From a virus (Duplodnaviria; Heunggongvirae; Uroviricota; Caudoviricetes): 10,528 nt of DNA. Shown here piece after piece: positions 6,306-9,785 of this stretch. Location of the stretch: positions 1 to 10,528 of the IMG/VR virus record IMGVR_UViG_2565956629_000002; one strand, given 5' to 3'. The notes below the pieces were generated by a model. That model searched no databases and was not told the origin of the DNA. It saw only the letters and a list, made by a program, of their open reading frames with translations. Made by a program: the position numbers and the translations under genes. Numbering within the stretch: position 1 is the stretch's first letter; every line of letters begins with the position of its first letter.

Positions 6306-6382
6306 TTACCGTTGAGGTAATAATTATGCGTATTTGGTTTGATGTCAATAGATATGAGTTAAAAAAATTACCCATAAGGTAA
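6306..6382. promoter_or_regulatory. OL-like operator pair: two perfect TTACC-N5-GGTAA palindromes flanking the pL-like promoter
   Basis: TTACCgttgaGGTAA (6306-6320) and TTACCcataaGGTAA (6368-6382), 62 bp centre to centre. Confidence 0.6.
6320..6348 (-). promoter_or_regulatory. pL-like early leftward promoter
   Basis: On the minus strand: TTGACA (complement of 6343-6348), 17-nt spacer, AATTAT abutting the 6306-6320 operator. The second operator lies 19 bp upstream of the -35. Confidence 0.45.
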
Positions 6383-6393
6383 TCTTGTTGGCA

Positions 6394-6439: not shown

Positions 6440-7024
6440 TTATTGTTTGCTTCTTTCGTTCTGGCTGATGACAAATTCAATGTAACTTTCGATCTTTGCC
6501 TTCTCTGTTTCGGGTAACAATGCGTAGCGCGAGCGGTCATAGTTGATAGTCGCAGGGTCGTGCGGGTGAATCAGTAATTCATAGCCGTGACGCCCGAATG
6601 CGGATGCAACATTCTCCAGGGTGGAAATGGAAACGCTGACTTCATTGTTTAACAGGCGGCTGATTGTCACCTGGGCGACGCCGGATGCGCGGTGTAGTTT
6701 TCCCTGCGTTGAAAGGTCGCGGCTTTCGCTCATCCAGCGTTCCAGGTTGTGAGCCGCCAGCTGACCAATGTCGCTTGGGCCGACAGGCTGAAACCCCTCC
6801 TGAGAAAGCGAGCGATCGATATCAAGCCAGTTACGGGGTTTATTGGCGGCAGCTTCAATTTTTCGCGCAACCTGGTCGCCGATAACCTTCTTGCCAAGAG
6901 CCCAGCGGTTTACCAGATTTGCCTGAGTTCCAAGTTTTTCTGCCATCCGCGTCTGAACACCATTGAATTCACGGTCGATCAAGTCGTTGAGATTTTGCCT
7001 GCGGACGTCCTGGATACTTTTCAT
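6440..7024 (-). CDS. Prophage repressor-like protein with two HTH domains and no S24 peptidase domain
   Basis: 194 aa, transcribed divergently from the cro-like gene across an operator-rich region. Two HTH-like segments (QTRMAEKLGTQANLVNRWALGKK and LHRASGVAQVTISRLLNNEVSVS). No LexA-type Ala-Gly cleavage site or Ser/Lys peptidase module recognisable. Confidence 0.8.
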   Translation of the reverse strand: MKSIQDVRRQNLNDLIDREFNGVQTRMAEKLGTQANLVNRWALGKKVIGDQVARKIEAAANKPRNWLDIDRSLSQEGFQPVGPSDIGQLAAHNLERWMSESRDLSTQGKLHRASGVAQVTISRLLNNEVSVSISTLENVASAFGRHGYELLIHPHDPATINYDRSRYALLPETEKAKIESYIEFVISQNERSKQ

Positions 7025-7079: not shown

Positions 7080-7142
7080 TTACCCAACAGGTAAATGCAC
7101 CTCATAGGTAACTATCCTTGATTTTTGTTACCTTATGGGTGA
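7080..7142. promoter_or_regulatory. OR-like operator cluster between the repressor and cro-like genes
   Basis: TTACCcaacaGGTAA (7080-7094, perfect), gcACCtcataGGTAA (7097-7111, degenerate), TTACCttatgGGTgA (7128-7142, one mismatch). Confidence 0.6.
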
Positions 7143-7178: not shown

Positions 7179-7409
7179 ATGAGCGATAACGGACATTTCG
7201 ATTTCAAAAAGCACTGGCTTGCACTTACTCCGGATGAGCGTGAAGCCTTCGCACAGGAAGCCGGAACGACGAGTCACTATATCCAGACTCACTTAACAGG
7301 TAAGCGCAAAATGCCAGGTAAAGTATTGATGAATGGGCTTTTTAAAGCCTGTAAAACAAGACAATGGCTGCGCTCAAAAGCAGAACTGGCATACTTCTTC
7401 TACTCATGA
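7179..7409 (+). CDS. Cro-like small HTH regulator (76 aa)
   Basis: Divergent from the repressor, immediately right of the OR-like operators. HTH-like segment REAFAQEAGTTSHYIQTHLTGKRKM. Followed by a terminator. Confidence 0.75.
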   Translation: MSDNGHFDFKKHWLALTPDEREAFAQEAGTTSHYIQTHLTGKRKMPGKVLMNGLFKACKTRQWLRSKAELAYFFYS

Positions 7410-7431
7410 TATCCAGCTACAACCCTCTGTA

Positions 7432-7453
7432 GACCGCCACCCGGCGGTCTTTT
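7432..7453 (+). terminator. tR1-like rho-independent terminator after the cro-like gene
   Basis: Stem GACCGCC (7432-7438), loop ACCC, stem GGCGGTC (7443-7449), then TTTT (short T-tract). Confidence 0.5.
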
Positions 7454-7557
7454 CATATCTATTCGTACCTCAAAGGTAATAAAAAACCAAATCTGGTTGA
7501 TCAAATTTTCCAATTGTGCAAAATATCCAATATCAATAACAAAAAGAGGCGGAAAAA

Positions 7558-7770
7558 TTGAAGATAGTAACCAGAATGGAGGCCGCAAAAGCCGGGTTAA
7601 ATCGCTATTTCACAGGAAAGCGGTGCCGTCACGGCCATCTCTCTGAAAGGTATGTTCTGAACGGAACATGTGTTGAATGTGCAATGAATAGCGCCAACCG
7701 CCATCGTAATGAATTTGCTTGTGCACTAAAGAGTGCAAGAGGGGAAACCTATGGCAAGCAGCTGGATTAA
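7558..7770 (+). CDS. Small zinc-finger-like protein at the CII position
   Basis: KRCRHGHLSERYVLNGTCVECA has a Cys/His cluster (C-x-H-x-H ... C-x-x-C). TTG start at 7558 with GAGG 8 nt upstream; the first ATG is at 7576 without an obvious SD. 3' end overlaps the next gene. Confidence 0.6.
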   Translation: MKIVTRMEAAKAGLNRYFTGKRCRHGHLSERYVLNGTCVECAMNSANRHRNEFACALKSARGETYGKQLD

Positions 7771-8575
7771 GGTTGAAGTTATCACTCCTGATAAACCTGA
7801 AATTTTTCAGATAGCAGAAATTCTGGGTATTGATCCAGATGCTGTTCTTGGAAAGCTGGTTCGTATATGGGCATGGGCTGACCAGCAAACAATAGACGGT
7901 AACGCTGGCAGCGTTACAAAAGGAGTACTTGATAGACTCGCTTTTATTACAGGATTTGCTGACGCCCTCATTAGCGTCGGATGGCTTGCTTATCATGACG
8001 GCAAACTAATTCTTCCAAACTTTGAGCGACACAATGGAGAATCATCGAAAAAACGTGCACTTACGAATAGAAGAGTGGCAGAGCATCGAAAACGAGTAAC
8101 GCAAAAAGTAACGCCAACAGCGTTACAAAAGGAGTTACCAGAGGAAGAGGAAGATATATATAAAACCCCACACATAGCGCACGTGCGCGAGGGTGCTCCG
8201 ACCAGTGAAGCGAACGGTATGCCGTTGCAGGTGGCTGAACCTGAATTTCTGGATGGCCTGAGTGAACCCATCGGGAAATTTCCGATGACCGATGGCTGGC
8301 ATCCGTCGCCGGATTTTCGACGGCGTGCTGCGCTGTGGGGAACGGCCCTGCCGGAACCGGAATTTACACCTGCTGAACTTGCTGCATTCCGGGATTACTG
8401 GATGGCTGAGGGCAAAGTGTTCACGCAGGTTCAGTGGGAACAAAAATTCGCCAGGCACGTAAATCATATCAGGGGAAAATCAAAAAACGCCGGGAAAAGC
8501 GATGAGCTTGACTGGAATAACACTGACTGGATAGAAGGGGTGTGGGATGAAATCAACTCCAGAACTTCTCAATGA
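7751..8575 (+). CDS. Replication initiator (O-analogue; DUF1376/YdaU-like N-terminus with DnaT-like C-terminus)
   Basis: ATG at 7751 with GAGGGG 8 nt upstream. N-terminus MASSWIKVEV...LGKLVRIWAWADQQ and C-terminus PMTDGWHPSPDF...FRDYWMAEGK recall the prophage replication-initiation family found upstream of P/DnaC-like loaders. Contains internal iteron-like repeats. Confidence 0.75.
   Translation: MASSWIKVEVITPDKPEIFQIAEILGIDPDAVLGKLVRIWAWADQQTIDGNAGSVTKGVLDRLAFITGFADALISVGWLAYHDGKLILPNFERHNGESSKKRALTNRRVAEHRKRVTQKVTPTALQKELPEEEEDIYKTPHIAHVREGAPTSEANGMPLQVAEPEFLDGLSEPIGKFPMTDGWHPSPDFRRRAALWGTALPEPEFTPAELAAFRDYWMAEGKVFTQVQWEQKFARHVNHIRGKSKNAGKSDELDWNNTDWIEGVWDEINSRTSQ
8096..8168. repeat. Iteron-like repeats plus AT-rich tract inside the initiator gene: candidate replication origin
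   Basis: GTAACGC at 8096-8102 and 8108-8114, inverted GCGTTAC at 8120-8126, at a 12-bp period. Followed by GAGGAAGAGGAAG and the AT-rich tract GATATATATAAAA (8156-8168). A similar GTAACGC-N5-GCGTTAC palindrome sits at 7907-7925. Confidence 0.4.
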
Positions 8576-9323
8576 GTACGATCGCTTACGTGAGCATGGT
8601 GTTGCTGTGCATGAAGAGCGGCGTGACAGCAATGGCAAAAAGGAGCATGTCGCTAGAATTTTCAATGAACTATTTGTCCAGTTACAGGCTGCATTTCCCG
8701 CAAGCGTTTCGACCATAAGGGAGCAGAACAAACTTAATGAATTCCGTAAGCAATGGATGCTTGCGTTTCTGGAGAATGGGATCACTACAATGGAACAGGT
8801 TAACGCTGGTATGCGCCACGCCCGCGCCAGTGAGTCTCCGTTCTGGCCGTCGCCAGGGCAATTCATCAAGTGGTGTAAAGACAGCAAGATGGTTCTTGGC
8901 GTCACCATTGACGATGTGATGGCAGAGTTTCACCGGTACAGCAAGGAAAAAAGTTTATATCCTGGTGGTCCCGAAAGATTCCCGTGGCGGCACCCGGTTA
9001 TGTACTGGGTCGTATGTGATACCCGCCGTGCAATGTATCAGCGCCAGCTTAGCGAGATTGAGGTTGAGAAACACGCGCGCAGGCTGCTCGATGATTGGGC
9101 GAAAAAGGTGGCTTCAGGACAGCAGATACCCGATCCGGTGATCAGCATACAGGCAAAGCCAGAACCCATGAGTACGCCTCCGGACACAGGGAGAGACGTT
9201 TACCATCCACCAGGGCGAAGTTTCGGGTGCATGCCTAACGCCGCCACCCTTGGGGGAATAACACCGGCGCAGTGGCTGATGGAGGAATACAGGCGGGGAA
9301 AGGCGGCAGGATTTATCAAGTAA
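8547..9323 (+). CDS. Lambda P-like replication protein (DnaB helicase loader)
   Basis: The stretch QLQAAFPAS...EQNKLNEFRKQWMLAFLENGITTMEQVNAGMRHARAS...PFWPSPGQFIKWC closely parallels the conserved core of lambda P as recalled (FPAS, QW.LAF.ENGITTMEQVNAGMR, PSPGQF..WC). Confidence 0.88.
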   Translation: MKSTPELLNEYDRLREHGVAVHEERRDSNGKKEHVARIFNELFVQLQAAFPASVSTIREQNKLNEFRKQWMLAFLENGITTMEQVNAGMRHARASESPFWPSPGQFIKWCKDSKMVLGVTIDDVMAEFHRYSKEKSLYPGGPERFPWRHPVMYWVVCDTRRAMYQRQLSEIEVEKHARRLLDDWAKKVASGQQIPDPVISIQAKPEPMSTPPDTGRDVYHPPGRSFGCMPNAATLGGITPAQWLMEEYRRGKAAGFIK

Positions 9324-9360
9324 TACCAGCGCGATAGCGCATTTTTTTACGTCTCGATAA

Positions 9361-9437
9361 TTACCTGTGAGGTAATAAAATATTCTAAACTCTATTGATT
9401 TCGTGTCTTATGTGGTTTTTAATTACCTCAGGGGTAA
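9361..9437. promoter_or_regulatory. Third operator pair (O3) flanking a promoter downstream of the replication genes
   Basis: TTACCtgtgaGGTAA (9361-9375) and TTACCtcaggGGTAA (9423-9437), both perfect, 62 bp centre to centre: the same spacing as the OL pair. Confidence 0.55.
9395..9423 (+). promoter_or_regulatory. Candidate repressor-controlled rightward promoter (P3)
   Basis: TTGATT (9395-9400), 17-nt spacer, TTTAAT (9418-9423) abutting the downstream operator. The upstream operator ends 19 bp before the -35, the same geometry as the pL-like promoter. Confidence 0.45.
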
Positions 9438-9440
9438 ATT

Positions 9441-9785
9441 ATGAGAAAACAGATACAGGCTCTTGGTCGACTCAAAACAGGCCAGATGAACAAAACAGAA
9501 TCTGCGTATTGCCAGCACCTTGAGCTGCGTAAACGTGCAGGGGAAATCGCCTGGTATCGATTTGAGGGTATCAAGCTGCGATTAGCTGACAACACGTTCT
9601 ATACGCCCGATTTTGCTGTGATGCTCGCCACCGGCGAGATGGAACTGCACGAAGTGAAAGGTTTCTGGACCGACGACGCCAGGGTGAAAACCAAAGTCGC
9701 CGCAGATCAGTATCCGTTCCGAATCATCGGGGTAACGGTTAAACCAAAGAAAGCAGGTGGTGGCTGGAACATCGAAGAGTTCTGA
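9441..9785 (+). CDS. DUF1064-like phage protein (possible PD-(D/E)XK-type nuclease fold)
   Basis: 114-aa ORF with GGGG about 8 nt upstream. YTPDFAV...EMELHEVKG resembles a D...E.K nuclease-type motif. Family name is from recollection, not a search. Confidence 0.75.
   Translation: MRKQIQALGRLKTGQMNKTESAYCQHLELRKRAGEIAWYRFEGIKLRLADNTFYTPDFAVMLATGEMELHEVKGFWTDDARVKTKVAADQYPFRIIGVTVKPKKAGGGWNIEEF

Follow-up and report, generated by a model that had tools for sequence, protein, structure and literature searches.

The intergenic region at positions 9329-9440 of the prophage DNA analysed here (a stretch of 10,528 nucleotides, referred to as the window) probably contains a sigma-70 promoter, P3, that is repressed by the phage repressor Rep and from which rightward early transcription resumes beyond the terminator behind replication gene P. 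In the mechanism that we propose, an intrinsic terminator would end the pR transcript of the replication genes after gene P, and some 50 nt beyond it P3 (TTGATT, 17 nt, TTTAAT) would restart transcription into an operon in which a resolvase gene, DUF1064, comes first and Eae/Ead-like genes follow. The downstream genes would need a promoter of their own because a conserved terminator lies directly upstream of them, and this promoter would have to be silenced in the lysogen because a constitutive promoter would otherwise precede genes of the lytic cycle. Two predicted Rep operators, O3a (upstream of the -35 hexamer) and O3b (over the start site and the ribosome-binding site), would bracket P3 for Rep; in a lysogen Rep would occupy both of them and P3 would be off, and the inactivation of Rep by the antirepressor Ant would allow P3 to fire together with pL and pR. 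In complete genomes of relatives the operon behind P3 extends to a regulator gene just before the terminase genes.

On this reading, the early-right genes of prophages of the epsilon15/phiV10 type would not form one antiterminated operon in the style of lambda, and the early-right region would be split into terminator-bounded units, each under its own repressor-controlled promoter. Such knowledge might be of practical use in annotating common prophages (the region is carried by 530 of 5426 complete E. coli genomes, ~10%), in predicting which genes are silent in lysogens and in engineering phiV10-based reporter phages. The P3 unit is sound but fairly ordinary and reveals no new kind of regulation; a substitution hot spot at the distal operators and a TGTGGTT element that P3 shares with late promoters, both described below, may outweigh the finding of P3 itself.

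The window and its repressor

The window shares 94-98% DNA identity with phiV10, TL-2011b and other E. coli members of Uetakevirus, the genus of epsilon15-like temperate podoviruses. Judged by its sequence, it is the attL-proximal early region (10.5 kb) of a Uetakevirus prophage of the phiV10/TL-2011b type and not part of a lambdoid siphovirus. Positions 1-17 read ATTGAGTGGGAATGATT, identical to the attP/attB core reported for vB_EcoP_ZX5, whose integration site is the 3' end of guaA (PMC9782041), and the window therefore begins at a prophage end. The gene order from that end is int, leftward recombination genes, the pL/OL region, rep (6440-7024, minus strand), the OR/pR region and a Cro-like gene (7179-7409); then come a terminator, a small gene and the genes for a DnaT-domain initiator and a lambda-P-type helicase loader (7733-9323), followed by the intergenic region at 9329-9440, the DUF1064 gene (9441-9785) and an Eae-like gene.

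The product of rep is the immunity repressor and is expected, from its homology to the Rep protein of Salmonella phage SPC32H, to bind the operators described below. The alignment with SPC32H Rep (PDB 5D50) runs over the full length of the protein (E = 4.5e-42), and a Pfam search with the window's repressor returned helix-turn-helix domains only and no Peptidase S24 domain. The window's repressor shares 42-45% identity with those of epsilon15, SPC32H and BUCT711 (~42% with the first two). Repressors of the phiV10 type and of the epsilon15/SPC32H type, 42% identical as they are, use the same TTACC/GGTAA half-sites, and the segment NLVNRW in the N-terminal domain of Rep is kept between them; the operators of the epsilon15 type have A/T-rich centres.

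According to two papers that cite the structural study of SPC32H Rep, the protein binds DNA as a tetramer, domains from different dimers touch each palindrome, one tetramer is enough to repress, and inactivation is by the antirepressor Ant and not by cleavage (PMC9638917; PMC9986798). The Rep/Ant switch of SPC32H (PDB 5D50, 5D4Z) shares with the present system a full-length repressor homologue and the same O3 unit, at a repressor identity of ~42%; its repressor is described as a tetramer that an antirepressor, and not RecA-driven cleavage, inactivates (PMC9638917).

There are also likenesses to pL/OL and pR/OR of lambda, in that operators overlap early sigma-70 promoters, one repressor would shut several of them, and the repressor gene lies between a pL-type and a pR-type unit. 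Each operator of lambda consists of three adjacent 17-bp sites, lambda is not known to have a third operator locus, and it reaches its nin genes by N antitermination; in the window, unlike in lambda, two sites 62 bp apart bracket a promoter and the cro and P terminators are each followed by a fresh putative promoter. The two-site P3 unit and Rep thus lack the marks of a lambda-type CI operator system, which are three adjacent 17-bp sites and their cooperative binding by dimers of an S24-domain CI that RecA can cleave. The lambda framing of an earlier note on this DNA is accordingly misplaced, the repressor being an SPC32H-type Rep and not a CI with an S24 autocleavage domain.

The P3 unit and its likeness to pL

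The palindrome TTACC-N5-GGTAA occurs in perfect form five times in the window (at 6306, 6368, 7080, 9361 and 9423), as compared with 0.00 times in 200 shuffles, and 15 times with up to two mismatches, as compared with 3.2 expected; the same operator family was recovered independently by a repeat finder to which the motif had not been supplied. The thought that these might be chance palindromes in AT-rich intergenic DNA draws on the shortness of the motif and on nothing else, and we regard it as refuted by five perfect sites where none is expected and by over 100 distinct units, drawn from several genera, in which the spacing and the half-sites are conserved.

On the plus strand, the unit begins after gene P with a predicted intrinsic terminator (9329-9348), a GCGC-GATA-GCGC hairpin followed by A and seven T residues. 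The RNA fold of a 39-nt stretch at this place has an energy of -8.4 kcal/mol (z = -2.2), a rho-independent terminator is annotated at the orthologous place in phiV10, and the pattern GCGC-N4-GCGC-N-T(6 or more) lies upstream in 101 of the 103 units of our wider selection; an Rfam search over the whole window gave no match. The stem is weak-looking, with a tetraloop and just four G-C pairs, and because of these few pairs much of the downstream expression may be supplied by read-through from pR.

The distal (upstream) operator O3a, at 9361-9375, has perfect half-sites around the centre TGTGA (TTACCTGTGAGGTAA) and is separated from the -35 hexamer by 19 nt (9376-9394). Within this gap, an A-tract of the form YAAAAT (9376-9381, plus strand) adjoins O3a, and its AAAA is present in 55-60 of 60 distinct units. 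The predicted -35 hexamer, TTGATT (9395-9400, plus strand), agrees with the consensus at 4/6 positions, the spacer (9401-9417) is 17 nt long and ends in the element TGTGGTT (9411-9417, plus strand; T-R-T-G-G-W-T, with T.TGG in 59-60 of the 60 units), and the predicted -10 hexamer, TTTAAT (9418-9423, plus strand), has a 5/6 match to TATAAT. The proximal operator O3b, at 9423-9437, is again a perfect site, with the centre TCAGG (TTACCTCAGGGGTAA); it has the last T of the -10 hexamer (position 9423) in common with the promoter, covers the predicted start (~9430) and contains a Shine-Dalgarno sequence, AGGGG, at 9430-9434, which places the latter at the extreme 5' end of a predicted leader of ~11 nt. 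O3b starts 62 bp, or ~5.9 helical turns, after the start of O3a, and 47 nt separate the two sites. The first gene of the predicted P3 operon, at 9441-9785 on the plus strand, encodes a DUF1064 protein (Pfam DUF1064, E = 3.7e-7; PHROG 190, E = 7e-43).

Every number in the earlier note's account of P3 (an operator, 19 nt, TTGATT, 17 nt, TTTAAT and an abutting operator at 9361-9437) was borne out when the sequence was read again, and so was its statement that the pL unit (6306-6382) has the same geometry and the same 62-bp spacing. On the minus strand, pL consists of OL2 (6368-6382), 19 nt, a -35 hexamer TTGACA (6343-6348), 17 nt, a -10 hexamer AATTAT (6320-6325) and OL1 (6306-6320), the same plan as that of P3. 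The two units resemble each other base for base in layout, down to the one base that the -10 hexamer and the second operator share, and both have CTA before the -35 hexamer. The geometry of pL is genus-wide, with 47 nt between the operators and 48 nt in the Klebsiella lineage.

As a sigma-70 promoter, P3 has both hexamers at a spacing within the 16-18 nt range and has T in place of the A that stricter definitions call for at position 2 of the -10 hexamer. The simple promoter scan that we used demands this A and for that reason did not list TTGATT/TTTAAT. O3a and O3b have the attributes of Uetakevirus Rep operators, namely the palindrome, a cognate rep gene, an annotated orthologue and conserved half-sites. 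No mapped transcription start, reporter assay or footprint for P3 or its relatives was found in the literature searched, in which citing papers and GenBank/RefSeq annotation were the sources on the genus; the paper on vB_EcoP_ZX5 gives four predicted promoters without coordinates or operators (PMC9782041). Two other candidates were rejected: a minus-strand promoter AAGACA/TAGAAT (9409-9382) given by the scan, whose -10 hexamer lies in a stretch that varies between lineages, and TGTGG as an extended -10, in which the TG is 4 nt from the hexamer and not 1 nt.

The A-tract next to O3a raises the question of a different promoter, working alone or in tandem with P3, that would have its -35 hexamer (TCGATA) at 9354-9359, a 16-nt spacer containing O3a, its -10 hexamer (TAAAAT) at 9376-9381 and its start at ~9388. 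Its hexamers score 9/12 consensus matches in the scan, YAAAAT is conserved throughout the genus, and some alleles of the upstream hexamer (TTGATA, TCAACA) are good -35 sequences; however, this hexamer falls in the most variable stretch of the region and makes a poor -35 in epsilon15, Tyrion and the Klebsiella lineage, and pL has a T-tract at the corresponding place without any such promoter, so that an UP-like or bending role is the better fit. We consider it unlikely that TCGATA/TAAAAT does the work, and possible that it is a lineage-specific extra. Because of the T-tract at the same position in pL, the A-tract is probably an UP-like or bending element of P3, the alternative being the -10 hexamer of a weak tandem promoter.

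The operators of P3 are always 62 bp apart, which puts them on about one face of the helix, and Rep is taken to be a two-headed tetramer; because of these two features, a single Rep tetramer probably holds O3a and O3b together with the promoter in a small loop, as it would at pL. LacI, with O1 and an auxiliary operator, and GalR, with OE and OI, provide known examples of operator pairs that bracket a promoter and are closed by a tetramer. By analogy, operators that are in phase around a promoter, together with a tetrameric repressor, suggest a small DNA loop here as well; the proteins are unrelated, 62 bp makes a tight loop at the short end of those known, and the present loop is one that we infer. 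The strict 62-bp pairing amounts to a testable prediction, on the DNA side, for the unusual tetrameric binding mode of SPC32H Rep.

Conservation and variation of the unit

Two collections of P3 units were compared. One, of 101 distinct units, combined a pattern scan of IMG/VR with loci fetched through Rep; the other was a wider selection that added loci from a genome collection and comprised 103 units with 60 distinct inter-operator sequences. The unit, with its 62-bp operator spacing, is present in phiV10, Enterobacter phage Tyrion, the Salmonella phages epsilon15 and SPC32H and Klebsiella phage BUCT711, and in Tyrion it is still present in an immunity region that is only 77% identical. The 47 nt between the operators are exact in all 101 distinct units. 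Among the 60 distinct inter-operator sequences, the hexamers keep their positions in 60/60, the -35 hexamer begins with TTG in 60/60 and continues with A in 59/60, the preceding CTA is nearly invariant, and the -10 hexamer, summarised as T-T-W-A-A-T, is TTTAAT in 33, TTAAAT in 20 and ATAAAT in three. When the genome collection was scanned, with a single genome for each bacterial species, the unit turned up in prophages of Citrobacter, Pseudocitrobacter, Klebsiella, Kluyvera, Ca. Erwinia dacicola and Superficieibacter, and Buttiauxella and Pseudescherichia also yielded a matching pL unit; one further match, in Chryseobacterium, lacks the terminator, the A-tract and the start codon and looks like chance.

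The P3 unit is constant while its neighbours change. The upstream gene is of the lambda P type in phiV10 and Tyrion; epsilon15 has a DnaT-like gene at this place and SPC32H a different replication gene. Downstream the first gene is always a resolvase gene, of either the DUF1064 or the RuvC type. It can be called a resolvase gene in both versions because PHROGs files the DUF1064 family (PHROG 190) as 'Holliday junction resolvase'. The DUF1064 gene of the window (9441-9785) and the gene for the RuvC-type resolvase (8207-8671 in locus L002, 3222-3686 in locus L003) are positional alternates.

The closest documented counterpart is the site upstream of the resolvase gene gp43 of epsilon15 (NC_004775.2, 35906-35922), which belongs to the same genus, shows the same 62-bp spacing and is the orthologue of O3a by position and sequence. 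The order there, a terminator, TTACC-N5-GGTAA, TAAAAT, TTGAAA, TTAAAT, a second TTACC-N5-GGTAA and ATG, is the same as in the window; epsilon15 differs in the upstream gene (DnaT-like as against P), in the downstream gene (RuvC-type as against DUF1064) and in a repressor that is 42% identical. The epsilon15 record annotates the upstream site alone, and O3b, the promoter between the operators, the likeness to pL and the genus-wide spacing are unmarked in the records of phiV10, TL-2011b, Tyrion, epsilon15, SPC32H and BUCT711.

The fixed positions of the promoter hexamers bear on two other functions that might be given to the O3 sites. In one, the pair would be mainly an anchor for long-range looping, through which Rep at O3 would contact Rep at OR or OL, 2.3-3 kb away, and stabilise the repression of pR and pL in the manner of the OL-OR octamer of lambda, instead of controlling a local promoter; a looping anchor of this sort had been suggested in the earlier note. 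O3a is 2281 bp from the perfect OR site, similar to the distance between OL and OR in lambda. One paper compares the C-terminal domain of Rep with the looping tetramerisation domain of Rco and p53 (PMC9986798). An anchor, however, would not require a -35 hexamer, a -10 hexamer and a 17-nt spacer at fixed positions, many other operons are preceded by the same operators, and a tetramer has just two DNA-binding heads, both of which the local pair would already fill (PMC9638917). Such a primary role is quite unlikely in our estimate; the data can do without it, and nothing specific speaks for it.

The O3 sites might, in the other function, be a roadblock comparable to the stoperators of mycobacteriophage L5, at which Rep would stop polymerase leaking through and between which there would be no active promoter. 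The sites do lie just 3' of a weak-looking terminator, and the dispersed single sites elsewhere in the genome could act in this way; but pR is itself repressed in the lysogen, leaving little to block, the conserved hexamers at fixed positions mirror those of pL, and the O3 sites are symmetric whereas stoperators are oriented. We hold this function to be very unlikely. Direct control of the DUF1064 block by the repressor, which the earlier note had also put forward, is the most likely meaning of the unit in view of its conserved half-sites and layout, with the function itself predicted from sequence.

Variation at short range was examined in 68 distinct near-identical E. coli copies of the region, in which the coding flanks are 97.7% identical on average. 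The half-sites of both operators have an entropy of 0 in all 68, and in the terminator and the -35 and -10 hexamers it is zero or close to zero. At the centre of O3a, by comparison, which occurs as 28 different pentamers, the entropy is 1.2 bits per position; at third codon positions in the flanking genes it is 0.14 bits. Invariant arms around a variable centre are the signature that would be expected of a protein-binding palindrome contacted at its arms only. The centre of O3b is confined to T-N-A-G-R in the 68 copies, in keeping with an additional use as the Shine-Dalgarno sequence, which is AGGGG or AGAGG at 6-8 nt from the ATG.

The variable centre of O3a and the nine nucleotides before it make up a substitution hot spot (9352-9370) in the E. 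coli copies, in which nearest-neighbour sequences show 0.19 differences per site as compared with 0.020 at third codon positions, a divergence about ten times as high. The same behaviour is seen at OL2, the distal operator of pL, together with its outer flank (6372-6391), but not at the centres of the OR sites. The variable centres of O3a and OL2 in the same genome are not coupled and assort independently. In the Salmonella and Klebsiella lineages the centre of O3a is fixed as AAAA(A/G/T). A bound protein that affects mutation or repair could produce the hot spot, as could selection for an adjusted promoter strength. We put forward, tentatively and with less than even confidence, the broader proposal that pL and P3 are versions of one fixed cassette (terminator, distal operator, A/T tract, promoter, proximal operator) in which 62 bp would be the span of a single Rep tetramer enclosing a promoter, and that the hot spot at the distal operators is a true one.

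Dispersed operators and a shared spacer element

The description of O3 as a third operator unit, given in the earlier note, falls short of the number of sites, since further sites lie elsewhere in the window and the genus. The epsilon15 counterpart of O3a was already annotated as repressor-binding. Around pR, the motif and promoter scans placed OR sites at 7080-7094 (perfect), 7097-7111 (two mismatches) and 7128-7142 (one mismatch). Another site with one mismatch, TTACCTTAAAGGTAT, is found at 151-165, ~45 nt upstream of the integrase start (208), and also in TL-2011b (135-149); it is possible that the repressor controls int through it. A weaker single operator, GTACC-TCAAA-GGTAA (7465-7479, one mismatch), lies 3' of the cro terminator (7431-7450), and the repeat finder detected a 35-nt similarity between its surroundings and those of O3a. 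phiV10 and Tyrion retain this operator; in epsilon15, SPC32H and BUCT711 it is degenerate.

The promoter-like pair TTGATC (7497-7502) and CAAAAT (7519-7524), with a spacing of 16 nt, lies 3' of the 7465 operator and before the replication genes; the five lineages compared all conserve this promoter-like part. The segment from 7465 to 7524 has the look of a distinct promoter, influenced by Rep, that would serve the replication genes, and the rightward early region as a whole seems to consist of three units bounded by terminators, with a putative operator and promoter for each. Farther to the right, inside the gene for the DnaT-domain initiator, the repeat finder found the 19-bp palindrome GTAACGC-N5-GCGTTAC within two 28-nt copies (7899-7926 and 8108-8135) that are 209 bp apart; these repeats are candidates for an origin or for initiator-binding sites.

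In TL-2011b, whose complete genome is the closest to the window, 14 sites were counted at up to one mismatch, as compared with 0.87 expected, at ~nine operator-bearing loci, and some of these are pairs or singles just upstream of the small terminase, head and tailspike-like genes. Positions noted in TL-2011b are 11590-11622, 14819, 33333, 34385, 34478 and 35597, and in epsilon15 they are 12, 30, 2932, 19896 and 24704; in the accessory region of TL-2011b a Rep operator lies near a Bro-N gene, and in epsilon15 one lies before the lysis genes. The presence of operators before the terminase, head, tailspike and lysis genes implies that late operons, too, would be under the direct control of the repressor.

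Operator copies are thus placed at many loci outside of the immunity region, and this dispersed design was already recognised by the annotators of epsilon15, whose RefSeq record carries seven 'protein_bind: repressor' features (three at OL and the others at 12-27, 2931-2947, 19895-19911 and 35906-35922). P1 C1, N15 CB and gp71 of mycobacteriophage L5 are comparable cases in which one repressor serves many operators spread over a genome. The dispersal is alike, and the sites of the window differ in being symmetric and in forming phased pairs at pL and P3. Searches of Pfam, the PDB and phage genomes with Rep did not return any of these three repressors.

The spacer of P3 provides a further connection with late genes. 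Its motif (C)ATATGTGGTT recurs ~48-60 nt downstream of Rep operators elsewhere, before the head and tailspike genes of TL-2011b and before the head and lysis genes of epsilon15, and a variant lies before the lysis genes of TL-2011b, where the search for operators with up to one mismatch gave none. The TGTGGTT element may be the site of a second regulator and, as it is common to the promoters of late genes, P3 may therefore not be a simple constitutive promoter. Outside of the window, the motif is located at 14878, 35644 and 39274 in TL-2011b and at ~2990 and ~24755 in epsilon15.
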